DNA of 64,000 nucleotides, from assembly GCF_003018115.1 (NCBI RefSeq), contig NZ_CP027457.1; one strand, written 5' to 3'. The notes beneath the pieces are model-generated. The model had not been told where the DNA came from. It ran no database searches and saw only the letters and a program-made list of their open reading frames with translations. Positions 1 through 30,458 of the stretch are shown in pieces (the first letter of the stretch is position 1; each line of letters starts with the position of its first letter). The stretch is from Escherichia coli. Lineage in GTDB: Bacteria; Pseudomonadota; Gammaproteobacteria; Enterobacterales; Enterobacteriaceae. The position numbers and the translations under genes were made by a program.

Positions 1-989
1 TCGCAGAGCACTTTATTCCGTTCCTCAACGACCATATCAAGCCATTACTGGTAGGCCGCGATGTGGATGCTTTCCTGCCGAATGCCCGTTTCTTCGACAA
101 ATTGCGTATTGACGGCAACTTGCTGCATACCGCCGTGCGCTACGGATTATCACAGGCGCTGCTTGATGCTACCGCGCTGGCAACCGGCCGTCTGAAAACT
201 GAAGTGGTCTGTGATGAATGGCAGTTGCCACGCGTGGCGGAATCCATTCCATTATTTGGTCAGAGCGGCGACGATCGATATATCGCCGTCGATAAGATGA
301 TCCTTAAGGGCATCGACGTGCTGCCCCATGCGCTGATTAATAACGTCGAAGAGAAGCTGGGCTTTAAAGGTGAAAAACTGCGCGAATATGTCCGCTGGTT
401 GTCGGATCGCATTCTAAGCAAGCGCACCAGCGCACGCTACCACCCTACCCTGCACATCGATGTATACGGCACTATCGGTCTGATCTTCGATATGGATCCG
501 CTTCGCTGTGCGCAATACATCGCCAGCCTGGAAAAAGAAGCGCAAGGCCTGCCGCTCTACATTGAAGGGCCGGTCGATGCCGGTAACAAGCCCGACCAAA
601 TTCGCCTGCTGACCGCGATTACCAAAGAGCTGACGCGCCTCGGTTCCGGCGTGAAAATTGTGGCCGATGAATGGTGTAACACCTACCAGGATATTGTTGA
701 TTTCACTGATGCCGCCAGTTGTCACATGGTGCAAATCAAAACCCCGGATCTGGGCAGTATTCACAACATCGTCGATGCGGTTCTTTACTGCAATAGCCAC
801 AGCATGGAAGCGTACCAGGGCGGCACCTGCAATGAAACTGATGTCAGTGCCCGCACCTGTGTCCACGTCGCCCTTGCCGCTCGCCCTATGCGTATGCTGG
901 TAAAACCAGGGATGGGCTTTGACGAAGGCCTCGATATCGTCTTCAACGAAATGAATCGTACTATCGCGCTGTTGCAGGCTAAGGATTAA
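1..989 (+). CDS. 3-methylaspartate ammonia-lyase (methylaspartase), C-terminal ~330 codons; 5' end lies outside the window
   Basis: Frame (phase from base 3) is open from the window edge to the stop at 987-989. Translation carries methylaspartase/enolase-superfamily signatures LPHALINNVEEKLG, HIDVYGTIG, ADEWCNT, HMVQIKTPDLG, GGTCNET, KPGMGxDEG, matching clostridial methylaspartase as I remember it. Confidence 0.85.
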   Translation, partial: AEHFIPFLNDHIKPLLVGRDVDAFLPNARFFDKLRIDGNLLHTAVRYGLSQALLDATALATGRLKTEVVCDEWQLPRVAESIPLFGQSGDDRYIAVDKMILKGIDVLPHALINNVEEKLGFKGEKLREYVRWLSDRILSKRTSARYHPTLHIDVYGTIGLIFDMDPLRCAQYIASLEKEAQGLPLYIEGPVDAGNKPDQIRLLTAITKELTRLGSGVKIVADEWCNTYQDIVDFTDAASCHMVQIKTPDLGSIHNIVDAVLYCNSHSMEAYQGGTCNETDVSARTCVHVALAARPMRMLVKPGMGFDEGLDIVFNEMNRTIALLQAKD

Positions 990-992
990 CAA

Positions 993-2363
993 ATGGCTCG
1001 TTCTTTTAAAGTCTTATCGCCAACGGCAATCCTCGGGTATGGATTCCCGGAAGAGAGCTTCCGCAAAGCGATGGCAGAATCGCCCGATCTGATCGCCGTT
1101 GATGCAGGCTCTTCCGATCCAGGCCCCCACTACCTCGGGGCAGGCAAACCGTTTACCGATCGCGCAGGGGTCAAGCGCGATCTGCGCTATATGATCACCG
1201 CAGGCGTGCAAAATAATATACCGGTGGTGATCGGAACGGCTGGCGGTTCTGGTGCCGCACCACACCTGGAGTGGTGCCGAGAAATAATTCATGAGATTGC
1301 CCTGGAAGAGCAACTCGCGTTCTCCATGGCGTTGATCCCGGCAGACGTTGACAAAGCCATCGTCCACCAGGCGCTGGATAACGGCAAAATCACGGCGCTG
1401 GATTTTGTCCCGCCGTTAACCCACGACGCGATTGACGAAAGTACGTATATCGTTGCGCAAATGGGCATCGAACCCTTCCAGCGGGCGCTGAAAGAAGGCG
1501 CGCAAGTGGTGCTGGGCGGGCGCGCTTACGACCCGGCCTGCTTTGCTGCGCTACCGATCATGCAAGGCTTTGATGAAGGTCTGGCGCTGCATTGTGGGAA
1601 AATCCTTGAATGCGCGGCAATCGCCGCAACGCCCGGCTCAGGCTCTGACTGTGCGATGGGCATCATTGATGACAACGGCTTTACGCTGAAGACATTTAAT
1701 CCGAAGCGTAAATTTACCGAAACGTCAGCAGCTGCACACACACTGTATGAGAAATCCGATCCCTACTTCCTGCCAGGACCTGGCGGCGTGTTGAACCTGA
1801 AAGGCTGCACATTTAAAGCAGTCAATGACGGCGAAGTCTACGTCAGCGGTTCTAAGCATGAAGAAACGCCGTATGCCCTGAAACTGGAAGGTGCACGACG
1901 GGTGGGCTTCCGCTGTCTGACCATCGCCGGAACGCGCGACCCGATTATGATCGCCGGGATCGATAAAATCATCGATGAAGTCAAAACCAGCGTTTCGCGT
2001 AACCTGTCGCTCGACGATGACAGCATTCGCATCAATTTCCACCTGTACGGCAAAAACGGGGTGATGGGAGACCATGAACCGATGCAAACTGCCGGGCATG
2101 AGCTGGGGATTGTCCTTGATGTAGTTGCACCGACCCAGGAAATTGCCAATAGCGTTTGCTCGCTGGTGCGCTCTACCATGCTGCACTACGGCTATGAAAA
2201 CCGCATCGCTACCGCAGGCAATCTGGCGTTCCCGTTCTCCCCTTCTGATATCCAGGGCGGGCCGGTATACGAATTTTCCATATATCACCTGATTGAAGCC
2301 AACGACGCTCTGCGTTTTGATTTCCATATTGAACAGGTGACGCCAGAAGGAGTTCAGGCATGA
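993..2363 (+). CDS. hypothetical protein, 456 aa; tentatively DUF1446/AtuA-like
   Basis: ATG at 993 with AAGGA about 7 nt upstream, starting 4 nt after the methylaspartase stop. Long ORF with normal composition. Family assignment is from memory only and unverified. Confidence 0.6.
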   Translation: MARSFKVLSPTAILGYGFPEESFRKAMAESPDLIAVDAGSSDPGPHYLGAGKPFTDRAGVKRDLRYMITAGVQNNIPVVIGTAGGSGAAPHLEWCREIIHEIALEEQLAFSMALIPADVDKAIVHQALDNGKITALDFVPPLTHDAIDESTYIVAQMGIEPFQRALKEGAQVVLGGRAYDPACFAALPIMQGFDEGLALHCGKILECAAIAATPGSGSDCAMGIIDDNGFTLKTFNPKRKFTETSAAAHTLYEKSDPYFLPGPGGVLNLKGCTFKAVNDGEVYVSGSKHEETPYALKLEGARRVGFRCLTIAGTRDPIMIAGIDKIIDEVKTSVSRNLSLDDDSIRINFHLYGKNGVMGDHEPMQTAGHELGIVLDVVAPTQEIANSVCSLVRSTMLHYGYENRIATAGNLAFPFSPSDIQGGPVYEFSIYHLIEANDALRFDFHIEQVTPEGVQA

Positions 2364-2677
2364 AACAGTCAATTGTCTCACTGGCGCAAGTCATTCGTTC
2401 GAAAAATGCCGGACCTTACGAACTGGTTTTAGATATTTTATTTAAAACGAAAGAAAACTATGAGCGAGTTAAATCATCAGGGCAATTAACCCCAGAACTG
2501 ATTGCGCGCTTATATCATGTTGAACCTGACTTTATTCATCGTATTGTCTGGTTTGATCCTTCTAACGCAGTAAAAATCGTCATGCCACGAGATATTATCT
2601 CCGGGAATGTAGGTGACAATGATGTCTATGGTGCACAGCAACATGCACCTTTATTAAATATGAGTTTCGATTTGTAA
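2360..2677 (+). CDS. small hypothetical protein, 105 aa; tentatively the DUF4387-like partner of the preceding ORF
   Basis: Start overlaps the upstream stop (ATGA, 2360-2363), indicating translational coupling. Family assignment unverified. Confidence 0.55.
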   Translation: MKQSIVSLAQVIRSKNAGPYELVLDILFKTKENYERVKSSGQLTPELIARLYHVEPDFIHRIVWFDPSNAVKIVMPRDIISGNVGDNDVYGAQQHAPLLNMSFDL

Positions 2678-2760
2678 AAATCCGAATACTTTTAGCCAAC
2701 TGACATCCCGTCACTTATTGCAGTTCAACACTTCAGCTATTTGTAAGGTTGTAATAGCAG

Positions 2761-2792
2761 GTAGATGCCTGAATCTCTATTCAGGCATCTAC
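2761..2792. promoter_or_regulatory. perfect palindrome (14-bp arms, 4-nt loop) GTAGATGCCTGAAT-CTCT-ATTCAGGCATCTAC; possible intra-operon attenuator, RNA processing site or protein-binding site
   Basis: Read directly from the sequence, between the small ORF stop (2677) and the transporter start (2838). No clean T-run follows it. Confidence 0.4.
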
Positions 2793-2837
2793 TTCTCCTG
2801 ATTCTGATTTATCGCCGTGCACCTGATGGAGGAAAAA

Positions 2838-4118
2838 ATGAAGAAAATAAGTTTAACCACGATGATTCTTTTGGCGCTGGTACTTGGAATGATTATCGGC
2901 GTAGTGCTCAATAACACTGCTTCACCGGAAACCGCAAAACTCTATGCGCAAGAAATATCGATATTCACGACGATTTTCTTACGACTGATAAAAATGATTA
3001 TCGCTCCGTTAGTGGTCTCTACCCTGGTGGTAGGTATTGCTAAAATGGGCGATGCCAAAGCCCTTGGTCGTATTTTTTCTAAAACACTTTTTTTATTTAT
3101 TTGCGCCTCATTGCTGTCAATTGCCTTAGGCTTGATAACGGTAAATTTCTTCATGCCAGGCACAGGAATTAATTTTGTTGCACACGGTGCCGAAACCACA
3201 GGAGTGGTCGCGTCAGAACCCTTTACGCTAAAAGTATTTATTTCGCATGCTTTCCCCACCAGCATTGTCGATGCCATGGCGCACAATGAAATTTTGCAAA
3301 TCGTGGTGTTCTCAATTTTCCTCGGCTGTAGCCTGACGGCGATTGGCGAGAAAGGCAGCGCCATCGTTCACGCCTTAGATTCGCTGGCACATGCCATGTT
3401 AAAGCTCACTGGCTACGTCATGCTCTTCGCTCCCCTGACCGTATTCGCCGCTATTTCAGCATTGATTGCTGAACGAGGACTGGCCGTTATGGTGAGCGCC
3501 GGGATCTTTATGGGTGAATTTTATTTCACCATGTTATTACTTTGGGTGCTGCTTATCGGTCTGGCCATCGTTTATGTCGGCCCCTGCATCAGACGCCTGA
3601 CCCGCGCCCTTTCGGAACCCGCCCTGCTGGCATTTACCACATCCAGTTCTGAAGCGGCTTTTCCGGGAACGCTTGAAAAACTGGAGCAATTTGGCGTTTC
3701 CCCCAAAATTGCCAGCTTTGTCTTACCCATTGGCTACTCATTTAATCTCGTTGGATCAATGGCCTACTGCTCCTTCGCCACAGTTTTCATCGCCCAGGCC
3801 TGCAATATCCATTTATCCATCGGTGAACAAATCACCATGCTGTTGATCCTGATGTTGACCTCGAAAGGAATGGCTGGCGTACCACGCGCCTCAATGGTGG
3901 TTATCGCCGCCACGCTCAACCAGTTCAATATTCCGGAAGCGGGGCTGATCTTGCTGATGGGCGTTGATCCGTTCCTTGATATGGGGCGTTCCGCGACAAA
4001 CGTCATGAGCAACGCAATGGGCGCTGCGATGGTGAGTCGGTGGGAAGGCGAACATTTCGGCGAGGGCTGTCGGGGTAAAGCATTAAAACCCAATGAATCG
4101 AACGTTGCTCTGCCCTGA
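2838..4118 (+). CDS. dicarboxylate/amino acid:cation symporter (DAACS family, DctA/GltP-like), 426 aa
   Basis: ATG at 2838 preceded by GGAGG. Highly hydrophobic multi-helix protein with DAACS-like segments; the longer ORF from 2817 is probably an upstream extension. Confidence 0.8.
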   Translation: MKKISLTTMILLALVLGMIIGVVLNNTASPETAKLYAQEISIFTTIFLRLIKMIIAPLVVSTLVVGIAKMGDAKALGRIFSKTLFLFICASLLSIALGLITVNFFMPGTGINFVAHGAETTGVVASEPFTLKVFISHAFPTSIVDAMAHNEILQIVVFSIFLGCSLTAIGEKGSAIVHALDSLAHAMLKLTGYVMLFAPLTVFAAISALIAERGLAVMVSAGIFMGEFYFTMLLLWVLLIGLAIVYVGPCIRRLTRALSEPALLAFTTSSSEAAFPGTLEKLEQFGVSPKIASFVLPIGYSFNLVGSMAYCSFATVFIAQACNIHLSIGEQITMLLILMLTSKGMAGVPRASMVVIAATLNQFNIPEAGLILLMGVDPFLDMGRSATNVMSNAMGAAMVSRWEGEHFGEGCRGKALKPNESNVALP

Positions 4119-4225
4119 GGGGGATCTTAAGCAATCAGAAGCCAATGACTACGCATTTTTATAAGCCGGATCATGAAGTTAGACGGCAATTAAGTAACAC
4201 TAACGTTTAAGGTGAAAAGTGAAAT

Positions 4226-5878
4226 ATGTCCAAACCATTTATCTGGCAAGAACCGTTTCTACAAAATAAAGACGGTACAGAATATACATTAATTAGCGAT
4301 CAGCATATTACAGTAACGGAATTAGACGGCGAAGAAGTGATAAAAATCGCTCCTGAAGCATTAACGCTGCTTGCCCGGCAGGCATTTTATGAAGCCTCTT
4401 TTTTCTTACGTTCCGCTCATTTGCAACAGGTCGCCAGCATTCTTAACGATCAGCAGGCCAGTAGTAATGATAAATACGTTGCGTTGCAGTTATTACGTAA
4501 TGCTGAAGTCTCAGCAAAAGGGGTATTACCCAACTGTCAGGATACCGGCACCGCAACTATTGTTGCCAGTAAAGGGCAACAGATATGGACCGGAGGTAAC
4601 GACGCTGAAGCCTTAAGCAAAGGCATTTACAGTACTTTCCAGGAAAATAATCTGCGCTTTTCACAAAATGCGCCGCTGGATATGTATACCGAAGTCAATA
4701 CGCAAACCAATCTCCCGGCGCAGATTGATATCAGCGCTGTCGCTGGTGATGAGTACCATTTTCTCTGTGTTAATAAAGGGGGCGGCTCCGCCAATAAAGC
4801 CGCGCTTTATCAGGAAACCAAATCCTTATTGCAACCAGAAAAACTGACCGCATTTTTAATCGAAAAAATGAAATCGCTGGGCACCGCTGCCTGCCCGCCT
4901 TACCACATCGCCTTTGTCGTCGGAGGGCTTTCAGCCGATCAAACCTTAAAAGTTGCCAAGCTGGCCTCAACGAAATATTACGACAATTTGCCCACCAGCG
5001 GAAACGAGCAGGGACAAGCATTCCGTGATATTGAGCTGGAAAAAGCGTTGCTCGAGGCCAGTCAGCAATTTGGTATTGGTGCACAATTTGGGGGGAAATA
5101 TTTCGCTCATGATATTCGCGTCATGCGTCTGCCGCGTCACGGTGGCTCTTGCCCGATAGCTATGGCGCTCTCCTGTTCTGCCGATCGCAATATCAAAGCA
5201 AAAATTAACAAACACGGTATCTGGCTGGAAAAACTCGAACACAATCCGGGGCAATATATTCCAGCCTCATTGCGGGAAGAAAATCACGCGCAACATGTAC
5301 AACTGGATCTAAACCGTCCGTTGCGTGACGTGATGCTGGATCTCGCCAGATTACCGGTAGGCACCCGCGTGTCGTTAAGTGGTCCCATCGTAGTGGCGCG
5401 CGATATCGCCCACGCCAAAATAAAAGCGCGGCTGGATAGCGGCGAATCGATGCCGGAGTACCTGAAGCATCATATTGTCTATTACGCTGGCCCGGCGAAA
5501 ACACCGGAGAACATGGCCTGCGGTTCACTGGGTCCAACCACGGGCGGTCGAATGGACGGTTATATCGATACCTTCCAGGCGGCTGGCGGCAGTCTGGTGA
5601 TGTTATCGAAAGGTAACCGCAGCCAGCAGGTCACCGATGCCTGTCACAAACATGGCGGCTTCAATCTGGGAAGTATTGGCGGTGCTGCTGCGTTACTGGC
5701 GCAAGAATATGTCAAAAGTCTGCGTTGCCTGGAATATCCGGAGCTGGGTATGGAAGCGGTGTGGATGATGGAAGTGGAAAATCTGCCCGCATTCATCCTG
5801 GTAGATGATAAAGGCAATAATTTCTTTAGTCAGTTTGAGCAGCAACACCGCTGCGCCAGTTGCCCTGCGGGACATTAA
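4226..5878 (+). CDS. fumD: class I (Fe-S) fumarate hydratase paralog, 550 aa; candidate mesaconase (FumD-like)
   Basis: Near full-length similarity to E. coli FumA/FumB as I remember them (WQEPF, GVLPxCQDTGTA, [41 protein letters not shown], GSLGPTTxGRMD). The symbol is from my memory of a described O157:H7 mesaconase and is not verified. Confidence 0.75.
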
Positions 5879-5887
5879 GGAAAATGA

Positions 5888-6490
5888 ATGGAAGCGCGAA
5901 TTTCAACTGAACGGCATGTGCAGCGCCAACAGAAATTGAAGGAACAGGTCGATACGCGCGTCGCGGCGGCGATAGAGAAAAAAGGGATCTTGATTGTTTT
6001 CACCGGCAACGGCAAAGGGAAATCCACTGCCGCGTTTGGTACTGTGACGCGCGCGGTGGGTCATGGCAAAACGGTGGGGGTTGCGCAGTACATCAAGGGG
6101 CAATGGGACAACGGCGAATACAACCTTCTCCAGCCGCTGGGGGTTGAGTTTCATATTATGGGAACCGGTTTTACCTGGGAGACACAGAACCGGCAAGCGG
6201 ATATCGACGCGGCGAAAGAGGTCTGGTCGGAAAGCAAACGGATGCTGGCTGACAAGCGTTACGACTTAGTGGTGCTTGATGAGCTGACCTATATGCTGGC
6301 TTACCATTATCTGGATACCGAAGAAGTGATCGCTTCTCTGCAAAACCGCCCGGCACAACAAAGTGTCATTGTCACCGGACGCGGTTGCCACAGTCAGATA
6401 TTAAAAATGGCAGATACGGTCAGCGAAATCCGCCCCGTCAAACATGCTTTTGATAACGGCATACAGGCCCAGCCGGGTATCGACTGGTAA
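5888..6490 (+). CDS. ATP:cob(I)alamin adenosyltransferase, BtuR/CobA paralog, 200 aa
   Basis: P-loop VFTGNGKGKSTAAFG plus GFTWETQNR and LDELTYM motifs align along the whole length with E. coli BtuR as remembered. RBS AAGG upstream of the ATG at 5888. Confidence 0.85.
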   Translation: MEARISTERHVQRQQKLKEQVDTRVAAAIEKKGILIVFTGNGKGKSTAAFGTVTRAVGHGKTVGVAQYIKGQWDNGEYNLLQPLGVEFHIMGTGFTWETQNRQADIDAAKEVWSESKRMLADKRYDLVVLDELTYMLAYHYLDTEEVIASLQNRPAQQSVIVTGRGCHSQILKMADTVSEIRPVKHAFDNGIQAQPGIDW

Positions 6491-6493
6491 TAA

Positions 6494-6520
6494 CTGCGCC
6501 TGGCATCCTGCCAGGCGCAG
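6494..6520. terminator. hairpin CTGCGCCTGGCA-TCC-TGCCAGGCGCAG between convergent genes
   Basis: Perfect 12-bp inverted repeat lying between the adenosyltransferase stop (6490) and the LysR stop (6524), followed by GTTTTA. Confidence 0.5.
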
Positions 6521-6523
6521 GTT

Positions 6524-7429
6524 TTACATCTCCTGCGGTACGACCGATTTCGCCAGCAACCATTCACGAAATTGCTGCAAGTGCGGTGAGTCAGACTTCT
6601 CTTCCTGCCACGTCATAATAAAACGATTACCGGTACGAATAGGCACATCACAGGGGATCACCATATCGCCACTATCCAAATCATGTTGAATAGCGAACCG
6701 TGGTAACAGCGCCACGCCGAGATTAGAGCGCACGGCGGCAATCAGCATTGAAAGCAAATCGAAACGTGGTCCGTTGTTGACCAGCGGACTGCTAACGCCA
6801 GATAAAGCAAACCACTCTTCCCAGCCAGTAATACGGGTGCTTTGATGCAGAAGTGGTAACTCAGTAAGCAGTTCTGCCACTGACAGTTTTTGATCGGACA
6901 TTGCAAGCAAACTGCCGCTGCATACCGGCAAAATCTCCTCATCAAAGAGATATTCTACTTCCGCCCAGGGCGCGCAAAAATTTTCGCGCATAATGACAGC
7001 ATCGTACTCCCGATTAAGAAAATCGCCGTTATTAGCTAAAGAATGAATATTAACAATAATATCGGGATGTAACTTTGTGAATTCATGTAAATTTGGGATC
7101 AACCAGTGGGTACTAAAAGTAGGATTAACGGCAAGTTCAATAACCTGAACCGTAGGCTGCCAGGTCATAATGGTATTGGTATCGCGTTCCAGCTTATTTA
7201 ATGTTTCTTTTACTATCCCCAGGTAATACTTCCCTGCATCATTAAGAAAAATGCGTTTTTTAGAGTGTGAAAATAACGGAGTACGTAAAAATTCCTCCAG
7301 CGCACTTACTTGTCTGAATACTGCACTTTGGGTTAACGCTAACTCCTCTGCCGCTCTGGTATAACTTTCATGACGTGCGACGACCTCAAAAGTCACCAGC
7401 AGTTCCGTTTTAGGTATTTTCCCTCGCAT
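6524..7429 (-). CDS. LysR-family transcriptional regulator, 301 aa
   Basis: N-terminal HTH region (LTQSAVFRQVSALEEFL) and the usual ~300 aa length. Convergent with the pathway operon. Confidence 0.85.
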   Translation of the reverse strand: MRGKIPKTELLVTFEVVARHESYTRAAEELALTQSAVFRQVSALEEFLRTPLFSHSKKRIFLNDAGKYYLGIVKETLNKLERDTNTIMTWQPTVQVIELAVNPTFSTHWLIPNLHEFTKLHPDIIVNIHSLANNGDFLNREYDAVIMRENFCAPWAEVEYLFDEEILPVCSGSLLAMSDQKLSVAELLTELPLLHQSTRITGWEEWFALSGVSSPLVNNGPRFDLLSMLIAAVRSNLGVALLPRFAIQHDLDSGDMVIPCDVPIRTGNRFIMTWQEEKSDSPHLQQFREWLLAKSVVPQEM

Positions 7430-8194
7430 AATGCCTTCCGTGAAAAAAATAACAATTCAAAAAATTATTTTATAAAAAATAGTAGTGCTAATGAATATCA
7501 TAATTCAAATAAACAAACCAGTCAGCTATATGTCCAACCAGAAAAATAAAGTGACAATAATCCTAAAACAGAAATTTCACCTCAGTTATCCGCATGCAAT
7601 ACTTTAAAGCTATTATTGCAAGAATATTATTCATATACATGAATATACTCTAAATAACTCGAGTTGCAGGAAGGCAACAAATAATGAATTTCCAGAAACT
7701 TACATAAGTCAGTGGCCAGGGTGAGCGAACATCGATGCAGAACATGCAACTTGAAGTATGACAAGTATACAATGATAAATTTAGATACCCTATGTTATAT
7801 ATTATCTATGTCTGGTTAAATTGAATGAGTCATGGCCTTAAAAGACTTCGCAAAAGATAATTTCTCTTTAACAATAAGCCAGATTTACCACTTGTAAAAA
7901 TTGCTATCGCCACATACACTACGCGCGTTTTCTTTCCCTTTTGCTGGCTGCTGACCGGAAAGACAAAATTACCCTCGCAATACAGGGGGTTTTTTAACGT
8001 CTATATTTCAGGACAGCGTTATTCATCATCTTTCAAGGCTTGATAAAGCCTTTCTGCGCAAAGGGATCCAACTTTCCCGCGCCAACAATATTGTTTCATT
8101 ATCTCGTCCATCTGGTGCCAGTGCCCGCGTACTGCTGCCGGACGAACTACCGCTGGAAGAAAAAGCAGTAACACAACTGCTTGATTTTGCAGAA

Positions 8195-9418
8195 GTGAAG
8201 CTACCAGACCACCCAGGTTATGTGCGCCAGACGTGCGCGACGCCAGATTTTCACCCCGGCAATGGCGTCCCCGTTGGCGCGGTGGTGGCCTCAACGCCGG
8301 ATTTAGTCATTCCCGCCGCCATCGGCACCGATATTTCTTGCGGCATGCGGCTGCTAACGACTGGATTAACACTTGAGCAAGCCGAAGCGAATAAAGACGT
8401 CATCACTCAGCGGTTAACGCAAGTGCTACTGCAAAATGAGCGCGATGTTCCGTTATCCGCACAAGCGTTCACTGCGCTTTTTGATGGCGGACCGGCAGAT
8501 TACGTATCGACCTTGCCATCAGCAGGTCTCTGGACACGCACGAATATCCCCCGAATGGTACAAGAGATTGACCGCTGCATTGGGCTTAACGAGCATAACA
8601 GTCATTCGCGTTATGCCCCACCCGCCCTACTGGCAACGGACCGCGCATTACTCCGCGATCCTTGTCTGGGTACGCCAGGTTCAGGTAATCATTTTATTGA
8701 ACTTCAGGTGGTTGATAGCGTGGTCGATCGCCATGTGGCCTGGCAACAAGGGCTGAAAACGGGCGATATCGTGGTGATGATCCACAGTGGATCGCGAGAT
8801 GTCGGCTTTTACGTCGGACGACGCTGGATGGACCGTGCCCGTGCTGAATGGCCCGCCGGGCATAAACACCCACAAAGCGGGTTATATGGTCTGGCTGGTG
8901 GACTGGCGGAGGAATATCTACAAGCGATGGGAATGGCGGCGCGTTACGCATGGTTAAATCGCGTGACCATTGCGGAAATGGTTCGCGTATGTTTTGCCGA
9001 TTTATTTCATCAGGATGATTCACATCTGGTGGTGGATGTGCCGCATAACATCATCCTTCGCGAACATGAAATGAATATTCATCGCAAAGGTGCAACACCG
9101 GCACACGCGGGCGCTCTGGCATTAATCCCCGGTTCAATGGGCGATTATACGTGGCTTGCGGTAGGTTGCGGCAACTCGGAGTGGTTGTGGTCATGCAGTC
9201 ATGGAGCAGGACGCAGCCAGCGTCGGCAGGCGATGCGCTCACGCGCGACTGAAGAGTCAACGCTGCCGTGGCAATGCGTCACATTGCGTGAAGAACGACG
9301 TCTTGAAGAAGCGCCAGCTGCTTATAAAGATATTGCTCCGGTTATCGAAGCCCAACAAGAAGCCGGATTGATTCAGCCTGCGGTCAGATTACGACCGTGG
9401 TTAACGTTTAAGGGGTAA
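8195..9418 (+). CDS. RtcB-family RNA ligase homolog, 407 aa from the first canonical start (GTG at 8195)
   Basis: RtcB motifs DISCGM, GSGNHFIE, HSGSRDVG, HRKGAT, SCSHGAGR. The frame stays open for 80 codons upstream (7955-8194) with no ATG, GTG or TTG, so the true start is uncertain. Confidence 0.8.
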   Translation: MKLPDHPGYVRQTCATPDFHPGNGVPVGAVVASTPDLVIPAAIGTDISCGMRLLTTGLTLEQAEANKDVITQRLTQVLLQNERDVPLSAQAFTALFDGGPADYVSTLPSAGLWTRTNIPRMVQEIDRCIGLNEHNSHSRYAPPALLATDRALLRDPCLGTPGSGNHFIELQVVDSVVDRHVAWQQGLKTGDIVVMIHSGSRDVGFYVGRRWMDRARAEWPAGHKHPQSGLYGLAGGLAEEYLQAMGMAARYAWLNRVTIAEMVRVCFADLFHQDDSHLVVDVPHNIILREHEMNIHRKGATPAHAGALALIPGSMGDYTWLAVGCGNSEWLWSCSHGAGRSQRRQAMRSRATEESTLPWQCVTLREERRLEEAPAAYKDIAPVIEAQQEAGLIQPAVRLRPWLTFKG

Positions 9419-9433
9419 CTGAAATGATAAATG

Positions 9434-9526
9434 GCCTGCGGTTCTCACGCAGGTCAAATCTGGTATCTGCGTAAGCTAACAAACTTGTTTATCAACAATT
9501 TCAGGCCATCCGAAGATGGCCTGAAA
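9434..9526. terminator. two hairpins (CCTGCGGTTCTCACGCAGG and TTCAGGCCATCCGAAGATGGCCTGAA) between convergent rtcB-like and mngB
   Basis: Inverted repeats read directly in the 145-bp gap between convergent 3' ends. Confidence 0.45.
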
Positions 9527-9562
9527 TTGTTGCCCCCCTTAGATACACTTTAAGCGCAATAA

Positions 9563-12196
9563 TCAGCCAAGGCGGTAGCTAAATGTCCGTGACTGCCCCG
9601 GTAAAAATGCCCCCAGTTCCTTTAAATTATCTCTTTCCGCTGTGCTGATGCTTTCATCCATCATCGTTTGCGTACATGAAATCACCTCACGACTGAACGC
9701 AACAGTTGCCTCACAGGTTGTCGATTCTGCCGGATTAAACAGTCGCAATACCACTTCTTGCCGGTCCTCCGCTTTTTTAAGAGCGCTAATCAGGCATCCC
9801 ACAGGTGGCATTTTCAGCAAGCTATAGCTTTCCGGCACATTGAATCCGGCTTTATTTAACTTCATCGCATCCCATGGGATTTTGTTGTAACACTGTACTG
9901 GCGTCAGCCATGCACGCGCCTGCTGGGCTACACCGGCGGTCGCAGGCGTACCTGTATAACTTAATAAGCTCAGACGGCAGCTAAAGGAGCCACGTAATTG
10001 TGAATCGGGCACCGGCATTTTTATGCCTGAAGGACGTCCAGGCCTTAAAAGCAGATCTTCTTTGCCCAGTAAGCCCACGCCACGCAGCAACGTAATGGCA
10101 AAGGTTTTCTTCTCTTCACCGATGACTTCAAATTCACGTAGCCCTTCGCTAAAGACAGCCATGCCGTTACGCCCTTCCTGTAAGGCTGCATAGTTGAGCA
10201 TATTCCATACCGGAACCGGCGCTTCTTTCCAGCCTTCTTGCTGCCAGTTGTTCATTGCACTGTCGTTCACGGGGCGCGTTAGCGAACCAAACTGGGTATC
10301 TGCCAGAACACTATCGGTGTTAAAAGATGTAGGGATCAGGACGCGAAGGCGATGATCGTCAGCCTGGTTATCAAGGTTGATATCCACATCAATGCGCCTG
10401 CTGTTATGACTAAGAGTGACAACCAACTCCACCCCTACTCTACCCGTGGATTGCCGGGCGCTGCGTTCTTGCAGATTACGCGGCACCGCCATTTCATAGC
10501 GGATAACAGCCCTGCTCTGCCAGGCCTCATGAATAATCTCGCATTGCGGTTTCGCATTCGCCGAAGTAATTACCCACTCTTCTTTTGCGGGTGAATAGTC
10601 ATATTCATCACCATCATCAGAGCTTTCTTCAATTTGCAATACCCGGTCATAGCGCACACCGCTGTCTTTATCTACCAGTTGTAGCGTTCCATCCTCATTG
10701 AGCGCAATTTGCCAGAAAGCATTTTCCAGTATCCCTTCAGCGTCACTTTTTGCCGCAATCACGTTGCCAGGCTGATTCGCTTCGATATAAAGCGTTCGAT
10801 AGCCCATAGAAGGGACAATCTGGTTGATCTGAATATCAAACTCCATAAAGGGATCGTAATTACCGTAATGAACGATTTGCCGATCGATTAAGCCTGGATC
10901 GATCTCACGGGCATGGCGAATAAAATACGGTACAGGCTGACCGCGATCGTCTCGTAGATTAAACTGGCTGGCGCGCAGCCGCACAGTGGTGTTAATAACT
11001 TCTTCACGCGGCCAGGGCATCAGGTTAAACAGCACAAGTTTGTCGGCATCACTCTGTGGCATGTTATCGGCAATTTTGCGCATGTAGAAACGCAGCAGAT
11101 TATCCGCCATGTCTTCAGCCAGTTCGAAGCGGGCGACGATTTCGCGATGAACTTTGTCACTACAGCAGCAGCCGATGCTGTCGTGGGCATGATTTTTTAA
11201 GATCTCTTTCCACATTTTCTCCAGCAAGCCGTGGTGGTATTCAAAACCCAACGTCCAGGCCAGCGTTGCCAGCGGTTCCAGCAGATTAACAATCTTATTT
11301 TCAATACGTGCGTGGGCAACTTTGATATCCATGCGCGTGGAACCGATGGTGCGATGCACGCGCATATATTTGCCATCAATAAATTCACCTTTCAGGGTCG
11401 CCAGACTTTCACGCTGCGCTTCAATCTGCTCGAATACCTCTTCAAAGCGGCTCATCACAAACTTTCGTTGAGGATAAATTTCGCGAAGTTTCTCCATTAC
11501 TTCGAAGATATTTTGCTGCAATGGCATCTGGTCATGACCATTCGGCAGCAAAATCTCTTTGGTTACAGACGCTTTTTCCAGCACGTCAAAATAACTGTCG
11601 AGGCGTTTGCGTAATCCGTTTTCGTCCGCAGGTAAGTACTTACCGATGGCATAACCCAACGGCAGCACCTGCGCCGTCACTTCGCTACCGTCACTGCTTT
11701 GCCACAAAAACTCGTTTTTATCAGTACCGTGGCGCTCAGAACATCCACGCCAGAACATGGTGCGGGTAATGCCAAATCCATTGTAGATATGCGGCAGTTG
11801 CCCGGACATGCCAAAGGAATCCGGTAAATAACCTATTTTCATCGGCTCGCCAAACGCGAGGCAGTCACGCATTCCGTACATCAGATTACGGACGATGGAT
11901 TCCGCAGAAACAATCGTGGTATCGGTCTGGGTATACCAGGGGCCGATAATCAACTTGCCGGCTTCTACCAGTTTCTTCACGCGGTCTTTGTTTTCCGGTT
12001 TCACCGCGAAATAATCTTCGAGGATCGCCGTTTGCCCGTCGAGTACGTAATATTTGTATTCGTTGTCCTGTTCCAGTCGGCACAGGATCTCTTCCATATT
12101 ATTGACCAGCAGAATGCGTGACTCTTCGGTGGTGAAATACCACTCCCGATCCCAGTGCATATGCGGGGTGATGTGAACGCGAGATACCGCTTTCAT
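9563..12196 (-). CDS. mngB: alpha-mannosidase (mannosylglycerate hydrolase), 877 aa
   Basis: Length and sequence fit the family 38 glycosyl hydrolase MngB; position next to mngA. Confidence 0.9.
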
Positions 12197-27998: not shown

Positions 27999-30458
27999 AT
28001 GGACACCGTGAATATTTATCGACTCTCTTTTGTATCCTGCCTGGTTATGGCGATGCCTTGCGCATTGGCGGTCGAATTCAACCTTAATGTTCTCGATAAA
28101 TCGATGCGAGACCGCATTGATATTTCATTATTAAAGGAAAAAGGAGTCATTGCTCCCGGTGAATATTTTGTTAGCGTTGCGGTGAATAACAACCAAATCA
28201 GTAATGGGCAAAAAATCAACTGGCAAAAAAAGGGTGACAAAACCATTCCATGCATCAATGATTCACTGGTCGATAAATTTGGTTTAAAACCAGATATCCG
28301 TCAGTCCTTGCCACAGATAGATCGGTGTATTGATTTCAGTTCCCGACCTGAAATGCTCTTCAATTTCGATCAAGCCAATCAGCAACTGAATATTAGTATT
28401 CCGCAAGCCTGGCTGGTGTGGCACTCAGAAAACTGGGCTCCCCCCTCTACATGGAAAGAAGGTGTCGCCGGTGTCCTGATGGATTACAACCTGTTTGCCA
28501 ACAGCTACCGCCCACAGGACGGCAGCAGCAGCACTAACCTGAACGCCTACGGTACCACCGGAATTAACGCCGGGTCATGGCGCTTACGCAGTGATTACCA
28601 GCTTAATAAGACCGATAGCGAAGATAGCCATGAACAGTCAGGCGGAATATCGCGCACCTATCTTTTTCGTCCATTACCGCAATTAGGCTCTAAATTAACC
28701 CTCGGCGAAACCGATTTCAGTTCCAATATTTTCGATGGTTTTTCTTATACCGGCGCGGCACTGGCGAGTGACGATCGAATGTTGCCATGGGAGCTACGCG
28801 GCTACGCCCCACAAATTAGCGGTATTGCACAGACCAATGCCACGGTGACGATCAGTCAATCAGGCCGCGTCATTTACCAGAAAAAAATTCCGCCAGGCCC
28901 GTTTATTATTGATGACCTCAATCAGTCTGTTCAGGGCACGCTGGATGTCAAAGTGACGGAAGAAGATGGTCGGGTGAACAATTTCCAGGTTTCGGCAGCA
29001 TCGACGCCCTTCCTGACTCGCCAGGGACAGGTTCGCTATAAACTGGCCGCGGGTCAGCCACGGCCTTCCATGTCACATCAAACTGAAAATGAAACCTTTT
29101 TTAGCAATGAAGTTTCCTGGGGGATGCTCTCAAACACCTCGCTGTACGGCGGCCTGCTGCTTTCTGGTGATGACTACCATTCTGCCGCAATGGGTATCGG
29201 GCAAAATATGCTGTGGCTTGGCGCGCTGTCGTTTGATGTCACCTGGGCCAGTAGCCATTTTGATACTCAGCAGGACGAGCGGGGCTTAAGCTACCGATTT
29301 AACTACAGCAAACAAGTGGATGCCACCAACAGCACGATTTCGCTCACCGCTTATCGCTTCTCCGATCGTCATTTTCACAGCTACGCCAACTATCTGGATC
29401 ACAAATACAACGACAGCGATGCGCAGGACGAAAAACAGACGATCAGCTTATCCGTGGGCCAACCGATTACCCCGCTAAACCTCAATCTTTACGCCAACCT
29501 GCTGCATCAAACCTGGTGGAATGCAGACGCCTCCACGACTGCCAACATCACAGCCGGTTTTAATGTTGATATTGGTGACTGGAGAGATATCTCGATTTCG
29601 ACGTCATTCAATACGACCCACTACGAAGATAAAGATCGCGACAACCAGATTTACCTGTCGATTTCGCTCCCCTTCGGTAACGGTGGTCGGGTTGGTTATG
29701 ACATGCAAAACAGTAGCCACAGCACCACACACCGCATGTCGTGGAACGATACGCTGGATGAACGTAATAGCTGGGGCATGTCTGCCGGACTGCAATCCGA
29801 CCGTCCTGACAATGGAGCCCAGGTGAGCGGTAACTATCAGCACCTGAGTTCAGCAGGTGAGTGGGATATTTCTGGTACCTATGCCGCCAATGATTACAGT
29901 TCCGTCAGCAGCAGCTGGAGCGGTTCTTTCACCGCAACCCAATATGGTGCAGCGTTTCATCGCCGCAGCTCCACCAATGAACCACGCCTGATGGTCAGCA
30001 CCGATGGCGTGGCAGATATTCCGGTTCAGGGCAATCTCGACTACACCAACCATTTTGGCATTGCGGTGGTGCCGTTGATTTCCAGTTACCAGCCTTCCAC
30101 CGTGGCGGTGAACATGAATGACTTACCCGACGGCGTTACAGTTGCAGAAAACGTTATCAAAGAAACGTGGATTGAAGGCGCGATAGGTTACAAATCACTG
30201 GCTTCCCGTTCCGGTAAAGACGTTAACGTCATCATTCGCAACGCCAGCGGTCAGTTTCCTCCCCTCGGAGCGGATATCCGCCAGGATGACAGCGGCATTA
30301 GCGTGGGGATGGTTGGCGAGGAAGGACATGCCTGGTTAAGCGGAGTCGCTGAAAATCAAAAGTTTACCGTGGTCTGGGGTGATAGCCAGCATTGCTCGCT
30401 CCATCTTCCTGAACATATGGAAGACACCGCAAATCGCCTGATTTTACCTTGTCATTAA
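27999..30458 (+). CDS. ybgQ: outer-membrane fimbrial usher, about 819 aa
   Basis: Large beta-rich protein with a signal peptide, following the subunit gene. Start chosen at the ATG inside the tracked ORF; uncertain by a few codons. Confidence 0.8.
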   Translation: MDTVNIYRLSFVSCLVMAMPCALAVEFNLNVLDKSMRDRIDISLLKEKGVIAPGEYFVSVAVNNNQISNGQKINWQKKGDKTIPCINDSLVDKFGLKPDIRQSLPQIDRCIDFSSRPEMLFNFDQANQQLNISIPQAWLVWHSENWAPPSTWKEGVAGVLMDYNLFANSYRPQDGSSSTNLNAYGTTGINAGSWRLRSDYQLNKTDSEDSHEQSGGISRTYLFRPLPQLGSKLTLGETDFSSNIFDGFSYTGAALASDDRMLPWELRGYAPQISGIAQTNATVTISQSGRVIYQKKIPPGPFIIDDLNQSVQGTLDVKVTEEDGRVNNFQVSAASTPFLTRQGQVRYKLAAGQPRPSMSHQTENETFFSNEVSWGMLSNTSLYGGLLLSGDDYHSAAMGIGQNMLWLGALSFDVTWASSHFDTQQDERGLSYRFNYSKQVDATNSTISLTAYRFSDRHFHSYANYLDHKYNDSDAQDEKQTISLSVGQPITPLNLNLYANLLHQTWWNADASTTANITAGFNVDIGDWRDISISTSFNTTHYEDKDRDNQIYLSISLPFGNGGRVGYDMQNSSHSTTHRMSWNDTLDERNSWGMSAGLQSDRPDNGAQVSGNYQHLSSAGEWDISGTYAANDYSSVSSSWSGSFTATQYGAAFHRRSSTNEPRLMVSTDGVADIPVQGNLDYTNHFGIAVVPLISSYQPSTVAVNMNDLPDGVTVAENVIKETWIEGAIGYKSLASRSGKDVNVIIRNASGQFPPLGADIRQDDSGISVGMVGEEGHAWLSGVAENQKFTVVWGDSQHCSLHLPEHMEDTANRLILPCH

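Follow-up and report, generated by a model that had tools for sequence, protein, structure and literature searches.

An apparently undescribed, conserved leader that most likely masks the ribosome-binding site of a mobile rtcB cassette at a patchwork junction in Escherichia coli

The locus

Positions 7430–8194 of a 64,000-nucleotide stretch of Escherichia coli DNA (contig NZ_CP027457.1; the whole stretch is hereafter called the window) form a 765-bp block between a gene for a LysR-family regulator, read leftwards, and a gene for an RtcB-family RNA ligase, read rightwards. A previous note made without database searches (the sequence-only reading) had described this block as AT-rich and empty of open reading frames (ORFs). 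AT-rich it is: GC content is 36.5% compared with 51.4% for the whole window, equally low 765-bp windows make up the lowest 2.4%, and the A/T run quoted in that reading maps to 7444–7482. An 851-bp query covering 7400–8250 is 100% identical by BLAST to the reverse strand of NZ_CP024273.1 from E. coli F9792, an enterotoxigenic E. coli (ETEC) of the O169:H41 lineage. The true intergenic stretch is 7430–8020 (591 bp, 33% GC), and the 174 bp at 8021–8194 are coding (47% GC). From left to right the block holds a LysR-proximal AT-rich segment, a degenerate enterobacterial repetitive intergenic consensus (ERIC) repeat, a spacer, and the promoter, structured leader and first codons of rtcB (Table 1). 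Taken together, it is likely that the block is a composite junction next to a mobile rtcB cassette with a leader that most likely masks the ribosome-binding site. As an AT-rich junction with an ERIC repeat the block is itself routine, and its interest lies in the right-hand 130 bp with the leader.

Table 1 Features in and around the AT-rich block (window coordinates)
Feature	Position	Strand	Basis
LysR-family (GcvA-like) regulator coding sequence (CDS)	6524–7429	-	Pfam HTH_1 and LysR_substrate; RefSeq; left edge of block
LysR-proximal AT-rich segment	7430–7643	-	26% GC; promoter scan; breakpoint 7447/7448
Degenerate ERIC (IRU/RU-1) repeat, 126 nt	7644–7769	-	TATAC...GTATA ends; consensus alignment; inverted-repeat arms
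AT-rich spacer	7770–7891	.	29.5% GC; no recognised feature, no Rfam match
Putative sigma-70-type rtcB promoter	7892–7920	+	-35 TTGTAA 7892–7897, 17-nt spacer, -10 TACACT 7915–7920
Conserved structured 5′ leader of rtcB	7927–8020	+	Covariance model R2; conservation versus synonymous sites
Pyrimidine tract UCUUUCC	7931–7937	+	Complementary to purine tract 7957–7963; tracts conserved
Invariant GCUGCUG, P1 5′ strand	7947–7953	+	CTGCTG in 84/86 loci; invariant alignment columns
P2 5′ strand GAAAGAC, purine tract	7958–7964	+	Minimum-free-energy fold; covariation
P3 apical hairpin ACCCUC(GCAAUACA)GGGGGU	7971–7990	+	Terminator scan; allele comparison; ~50 distinct apical stems in homologues
P2 3′ strand GUCU...UUC	7999–8009	+	Minimum-free-energy fold; covariation
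Shine–Dalgarno AGGA (8010–8013) and P1 3′ strand CAGCGUUA (8014–8021)	8010–8021	+	Fold
rtcB start codon ATT (ATG elsewhere)	8021–8023	+	RefSeq CDS start; strain comparison
Stand-alone RtcB-family RNA ligase CDS, 465 codons	8021–9418	+	PF01139 E 1.6e-95; RefSeq; full-length 465-aa homologues; solved RtcB structure matches

A mutated start codon hides the beginning of rtcB

The gene on the right edge of the block encodes a complete RNA ligase. Its PF01139 match spans profile positions 7–426 of 426, the RtcB motifs PDFHPG, GTDIxCG, GSGNHF, HSGSR, PHN and SHGAGR are invariant or nearly so in the homologue alignment, and its best matches among solved structures are the Thermus thermophilus (TTHA1785), Pyrococcus horikoshii and human RtcB proteins. 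The reading frame is open from 7955, and position 8021 corresponds to Met-1 of a family of 462–471-residue homologues that share the N-terminus MxxxSRLxKAFxRxGI. Residue 30 of P. horikoshii RtcB aligns with the residue encoded at about 8138; judged from this alignment, initiation at the GTG codon at 8195 would delete conserved N-terminal structure. Three other compared E. coli strains have ATG as the start codon of rtcB, and it is because this codon is mutated to ATT in the window that an ORF scan reported 765 empty bases. The earlier statement that the block holds no ORF of at least 60 codons is thus correct for plus-strand ORFs initiated by ATG, GTG or TTG, and wrong in that rtcB is coding from 8021, as both the RefSeq ATT start and the Met-1 alignment indicate. 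A 91-codon minus-strand ORF (8019–8294) also overlaps the block, antisense to rtcB, and is taken as spurious. A single start-codon mutation can therefore make an ORF scan report false empty space.

We compared the locus with other E. coli by BLAST against 5,426 complete genomes. The 60-nt stretch around the ATT codon is found exactly in 5 of the 271 genomes that carry the rtcB start, all from the F9792/O169:H41 group, and the other 266, which are taken to start with ATG, differ from it at 1–3 positions.

A conserved structured leader precedes rtcB

The DNA directly upstream of rtcB is predicted to be transcribed into a long imperfect hairpin. In the fold of the window sequence, helix P1 pairs 7945–7953 with 8014–8021, and C7955 and C7956 form extra pairs with G8011 and G8012 of the AGGA Shine–Dalgarno sequence; P2 pairs 7958–7964 with 7999–8002 and 8007–8009, and P3 pairs 7971–7976 with 7985–7990. 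The survey of leaders took in Pseudomonas, Variovorax, Burkholderia and Chitinivorax, followed by 80 genomes that a scan of a genome collection supplied. Of 86 rtcB loci, 84 have the motif CTGCTG at 61–136 nt before the start codon, compared with a chance expectation of about 5% per locus; it is missing from an N-terminally truncated Snodgrassella match and from a Peptococcaceae metagenome-assembled genome. The clade of 465-residue RtcB proteins that bears this leader spans gamma- and beta-proteobacteria. Leader identity to distant relatives is 0.61–0.86, compared with 0.32–0.47 at synonymous third positions and 0.39–0.52 in the DNA above the promoter.

Independent folding and covariation both support the predicted structure. 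All 16 of 16 diverse leaders fold independently to a P1–P2–P3 hairpin (z -1.7 to -4.7), and in 65 of 80 minimum-free-energy folds at least four of the seven GCUGCUG bases find partners in the 22 nt that precede the start codon, compared with 10% in shuffled sequences. This fold-based test took the place of a scan that sought the P1 partner by simple 7-mer complementarity and separated leaders from shuffles only weakly. RNAalifold predicted no pairs from a plain MAFFT alignment of 66 leaders, in which the stems were misaligned, and clade seeds with iterated covariance models were used instead. RNAalifold recovered P1 and P2 from the gamma-proteobacterial seed, and a covariance model built from this seed and iterated once (R2) has a single match in the 64-kb window, at 7936–8023 (34.1 bits, E 1.8e-5). 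R2 matches 75 of 87 loci; 76 of the 78 model matches are on the coding strand directly in front of rtcB, and this holds for every match with E <0.6. Helix cells are paired in 88.6–94.3% of cases versus 31–70% when the partner is slid by 1–3 columns. In P2, all ten pairs show changes on both sides (128 cells versus 40 in shuffles), and none of 500 shuffles reaches the observed covariation score. P1 is 89.6–94.5% paired and shows one-sided changes only (G-C to G-U and U-A to U-G), its 5′ strand being invariant.

The leader is apparently undescribed as well as broadly conserved. Rfam 15 gave no match at E ≤1 in 6400–9700 and none at the leader in ten diverse loci. Our literature search found no described rtcB leader motif and no E. 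coli "RtcB3", and in the structured-RNA discovery papers that it returned rtcB is absent from the main text. Longer leaders, with 105–136 nt between motif and start codon (L019, L021, L023, L031, L034, L074, L077 and similar loci), occur in Variovorax, Acidovorax, Delftia and Rubrivivax; in these longer leaders the interval from the P2 3′ strand to the ribosome-binding site holds an additional hairpin or two, and the covariance model aligned them poorly. Metagenome contigs were searched with the pattern TTCCT-N4-9-GCTGCTGCAGGAA: of the 80 matches listed, 78 fell within long ORFs, and rtcB was near none of them. Such matches arise by chance in coding sequence and have no bearing on whether the motif occurs away from rtcB. 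A leader peptide or an N-terminal extension of RtcB was also considered and is ruled out, since across the 80 leaders neither frame nor start codon is conserved.

Two changes in the F9792/O169:H41 lineage fall on this leader and its start codon. Besides the ATT codon, F9792 has T rather than G at 7992, which produces a run of six U residues (7990–7995) directly after P3 where other compared E. coli have UUGUUU or UUGAUU; a terminator scan called this U6 run with P3 (7971–7990) terminator-like in F9792. With T at 7992 the predicted stability of the leader falls from -29.2 to -25.1 kcal/mol. Because both changes hit expression signals of an otherwise intact 465-codon gene, they suggest a weakly expressed or decaying rtcB allele, and the O169:H41 ETEC lineage is a probable natural low-expression variant. 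Initiation at AUU in E. coli reaches about 0.02–3% of that at AUG (bioRxiv 10.1101/063800). Like the AUU starts of infC and pcnB, the rtcB start in the window is annotated as ATT and has a well-spaced AGGA; unlike them, it is a lineage-specific mutation and not a conserved regulatory feature.

Promoter, leader and gene travel as one cassette

A sigma-70-type promoter probably drives rtcB, with transcription expected, from the position of its -10 box, to begin near 7927. A -10-like box (TAGAAT, TATACT, TACACT and similar) lies 16–30 nt upstream of CTGCTG in 78 of 80 leaders, and in 78 of 80 a -35-like hexamer stands 16–18 nt above this box. By contrast with the canonical rtcBA operon, a search for a sigma-54 site (TGGCAC-N5-TTGCW, ≤2 mismatches) found none in 7430–8020. 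Conservation in relatives at 85%, 81% and 67% protein identity covers about 110 nt ahead of the start codon and does not reach the DNA further upstream. Genes for RtcB with the same upstream sequence neighbour hutU, mngB, dmsABC, a methyltransferase gene, cytochrome c assembly genes and others. Since these flanking genes differ in almost every genus, promoter, leader and gene travel as one unit, and 7892–9418 is a self-contained, horizontally mobile single-gene cassette comprising a promoter, a leader of about 94 nt and the gene for a 465-residue RtcB. Across the genera compared, no regulator gene accompanies it.

Two further genes or elements were seen beside rtcB in other genera. Chitinivorax sp. 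B encodes a Tpt1/KptA-type RNA 2′-phosphotransferase (PF01885), an RNA-repair enzyme, directly after rtcB (L014:3977–4549). Some 1.5 kb downstream of the rtcB gene of Variovorax sp. SG517 there is an unrelated tandem glycine riboswitch (RF00504; 57.3 and 39.6 bits; L019:5313–5520, minus strand).

The block is a patchwork junction of unrelated modules

Homology between the block and other E. coli genomes breaks sharply at 7447, 7634 and 7913. O55:H7/O157-type genomes share the LysR side up to 7447 only, followed by an unrelated AT-rich stretch of 449 bp, the 3′ remnants of rtcB and then sucD. In O55:H7 strain CB9615, two short 3′ rtcB fragments (corresponding to about 9145–9201 and 9375–9413 of the window) lie between LysR and sucD (L005:7498–7594), and O55:H7/O157-type genomes lack mngRAB at this LysR–sucD site. 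The remaining 3′ fragments argue that rtcB formerly stood at the O55:H7/O157 locus and was deleted later. In strain A25, homology to the block starts at 7634, 10 nt to the left of the ERIC element. A deletion in A25 (L004:5513–6001) runs from inside glmE, annotated there as a pseudogene, to 7634 and has removed the genes from the ammonia-lyase through LysR; the edge of the ERIC element may have been a recombination or deletion endpoint in this strain. Genomes with rtcB in a hut context (for example IR53017) match from 7913 only.

The segments also differ in how many genomes carry them. The LysR start is present in 711 genomes, 7448–7634 in 144, 7772–7912 in 150 and the rtcB start in 271, each in single copy. 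The two inner segments were matched at this locus only, and all 144 carriers of 7448–7634 are at least 94% identical. Because segment distributions and breakpoints differ, the LysR island and rtcB are independent modules, and the block is a patchwork junction of unrelated modules and not one functional unit, with 7430–7643 representing LysR-upstream DNA specific to one island haplotype. The sequence-only reading had offered a seam between two acquisition events as one possibility and had proposed a comparison across related genomes: the breakpoints and the four genome counts bear out the seam.

The repeat in the middle of the junction is a degenerate copy of a known element. Positions 7644–7769 align from end to end with the 127-nt ERIC/RU-1 consensus as printed in PMC2759123, and the two 25-nt arms (7644–7668 and 7745–7769) are 72% complementary. 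Relatives of this copy occur at 28,289 places in 5,425 of 5,426 E. coli genomes, with a median of five per genome, and the places listed are unannotated and intergenic. The window copy resembles known ERIC/IRU elements in its size of about 127 bp, its TATAC...GTATA termini, its imperfect palindrome, its intergenic position and its multi-copy occurrence. It differs from them in being degenerate, with several substitutions and a 1-nt deletion in the central core (the ERIC2 primer region), and it is more AT-rich than the consensus.

On the left of the block, the LysR promoter must lie within 7430–7643, where a promoter scan gave candidate sigma-70-like minus-strand sites at 7525 to 7497 and 7491 to 7464. 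The suggestion that the block contains promoters was therefore sound for both genes, as the LysR and rtcB promoters must both fall inside it and sigma-70-like candidates exist on both sides. A terminator-like hairpin with a T-run (7518–7541, minus strand) lies upstream of LysR on its own strand, where there is no gene to terminate, and is probably a chance match in AT-rich DNA.

Proposed function of the leader

The predicted structure most likely masks the ribosome-binding site of rtcB. The invariant GCUGCUG would pair with the Shine–Dalgarno and start-codon region (P1), the purine tract with the downstream pyrimidine tract (P2), and a variable hairpin would cap the structure (P3), so that a long imperfect hairpin could keep RtcB translation low until opened. 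The upstream pyrimidine tract at 7931–7937 may open this hairpin by competing for the purine tract, or may instead serve as a ribosome standby site. An early 5′ hairpin formed from 7931–7937 would display GCUGCUG in its loop and block P2, and RNAalifold picks this 5′ hairpin in beta-proteobacteria; the purine and pyrimidine tracts pair in several registers, which leaves the 5′ hairpin tentative. Because GCUGCUG is invariant while its partner varies, the alignment suggests that the motif has an additional sequence-specific interaction.

A bolder proposal, which we regard as doubtful, is that the leader acts as a conditional switch of a kind not described before and ties RtcB synthesis to damage of RNA. 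One version has GCUGCUG, in the loop of the 5′ hairpin, bound by a ligand, a protein or a fragment of broken RNA, which would free the ribosome-binding site. In another, an endoribonuclease would free it by cutting GCUGCUG. MqsR is a GCU-specific toxin and would be a candidate for this role. If the leader were cleaved, RtcB could reseal it and shut off its own synthesis. Were this proposal true, gamma- and beta-proteobacteria would share a one-gene mobile cassette with a self-contained sensor and feedback loop.

Several observations weigh against masking, switching or the weak allele. The E. coli fold is among the weaker ones (z -1.86 for the window and -2.69 for the ATG allele), and R2 missed about 12 loci that do have GCUGCUG. 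The structural alignments were fitted by the covariance model, and the pair counts are biased toward structure accordingly. The one-sided changes in P1 fit pairing, and they also fit recognition of the sequence by a protein or a second RNA. Pyrimidine and purine tracts are complementary in 79% of cases versus 70% when slid by one column, and the 5′ hairpin has z = -0.45, shuffled arms being nearly as good, and costs a mean of 7.6 kcal/mol relative to the minimum-free-energy fold. PGAP annotates the ATT allele as an intact gene. The transcription start site, the masking effect and any switching are all inferred.

Other explanations of the block or the leader fit parts of these data. Base composition makes it plausible, as a tentative alternative, that the AT-rich DNA is chiefly a silencing patch bound by H-NS that dominates the expression of both flanking genes. 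H-NS prefers AT-rich acquired DNA; 7430–7891 has 30.5% GC in a 51% background, and the locus is a mosaic of acquired modules. Such a patch does not explain leader conservation across genera and is compatible with a masking leader on a mobile cassette. The orientation of the genes invites another idea, that of a shared divergent control region through which the LysR-type regulator controls rtcB. Regulators of this type are often divergent from their targets, and LysR and rtcB are divergent and 591 bp apart in 144 genomes. The genome comparison contradicts a shared control region, as each module occurs without the other: rtcB keeps its promoter and leader without a LysR neighbour in hut-context E. 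coli and many other genera, and LysR is present without intact rtcB in O55:H7/O157. Between the two genes lie an ERIC insertion and two breakpoints in homology, and LysR is the last gene of the methylaspartate island. Control of rtcB by LysR is hence unlikely, and we give the shared region very little weight. Scarcely any chance, in our estimate, attaches to the block encoding an unannotated small RNA or small protein, as the sequence-only reading had also proposed. The block does contain several ORFs of 20–45 codons (for example 7832–7897 and 7712–7819), and an 18-codon TTG-initiated frame (7941–7997) runs across GCUGCUG and P3 to a TAA stop in the U-run. This last frame is not conserved in other genera; 27 leaders have no start-initiated ORF over the motif, elsewhere the frame varies between leaders, and the distances from CUGCUG to the start codon are even over the three frames (26/28/26). 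The ORF at 7712–7819 lies mostly inside the ERIC element, 7448–7634 and 7772–7912 occur at this locus only, and the lack of any Rfam match speaks against a small RNA site. We found no evidence for a small RNA or a conserved small ORF in 7430–7890, with conservation examined for leader-crossing frames only.

Two alternatives accept the leader and assign it a different role. The P3 hairpin with its U-run could act as a transcription attenuator or terminator, placing control on transcription and not on translation, which we think unlikely. The terminator-like call for 7971–7990 with TTTTTT in F9792 and the U-rich tracts after P3 in Gilliamella, Xenorhabdus and Pectobacterium leaders would fit it. 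However, TTGTTT or TTGATT follows P3 in the other compared E. coli. The U-run of Burkholderia and Comamonas forms the P2 3′ strand and is separated from P3 by over 10 nt, and what is universally conserved is the pairing with the ribosome-binding site. It is more improbable still that the conserved sequence acts at the DNA level, as the operator of a transcription factor that recognises a GCTGCTG core, and not as structured RNA. This core is invariant and stands 16–30 bp below the -10 box, a frequent binding position of repressors. Yet all ten P2 pairs covary, with G-U pairs that are strand-specific, the P3 sequence changes completely and stays a hairpin, GCUGCUG has its partner 60–130 nt away at the ribosome-binding site, and no regulator gene travels with the cassette.

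Relation to known systems

The proposed arrangement recalls leaders that mask ribosome-binding sites. The rpoS 5′ untranslated region is opened by DsrA, RprA and ArcZ, and the type I toxin mRNAs tisB and zorO need 5′ processing or a standby site. As in these leaders, an upstream strand of the rtcB leader is predicted to pair with the Shine–Dalgarno and start region, with a single-stranded 5′ tract and a possible alternative pairing; unlike them, its function is predicted from the fold, and it has no sequence relationship to them. With riboswitches and other Rfam leaders it shares a conserved, covarying 5′ untranslated region attached to one gene family over phyla-level distances. It differs in having no multi-helix junction or obvious ligand pocket, being one extended hairpin with an invariant 7-mer, and in matching no Rfam 15 family.

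The encoded protein stands apart from both RtcB systems considered. Like canonical E. coli rtcBA with RtcR, the gene in the window encodes an RtcB-family ligase with conserved catalytic motifs, but it has neither rtcA nor rtcR within about 15 kb on either side and no sigma-54 site, and its protein has 465 residues. Like RtcB2 of the RtcB2–PrfH ribosome-repair module, it is an accessory paralogue present in only some E. coli strains; unlike RtcB2, it has no adjacent prfH (its neighbours are the LysR gene and mngB), and it scores 172.2 bits against TIGR03073 (release_rtcB), where the cutoff is 271.8. A stand-alone RNA ligase with a leader conserved from E. coli to Burkholderia would add translational control to the known logic of RtcR with sigma-54 and of pairing with PrfH. 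The leader offers a way into two questions about this third RtcB paralogue of E. coli: its repair target and the timing of its synthesis.

Neighbouring genes

RefSeq annotation places the LysR gene at the end of a methylaspartate/mesaconate island that includes glmS, glmL, glmE, methylaspartate ammonia-lyase, AtuA-family, DUF4387, dicarboxylate symporter, class I fumarate hydratase and cobO genes; downstream of the RtcB-family CDS follow mngB, mngA, mngR and then sucDCBA. The island is a complete methylaspartate (mesaconate) glutamate-catabolism island between mngB and cydA, at 719298–729341 of NZ_CP024273.1 (window 1–7429 and upstream), and its class I fumarate hydratase is a paralogue. This locus between mngB and cydA is hypervariable in E. 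coli. Within 7300–8300 the only mismatch between the window and NZ_CP024273.1 is at position 7348 (C in the window, T in the record); codon 28 of LysR is thus GAG (Glu) in the window, where the record has AAG (Lys).

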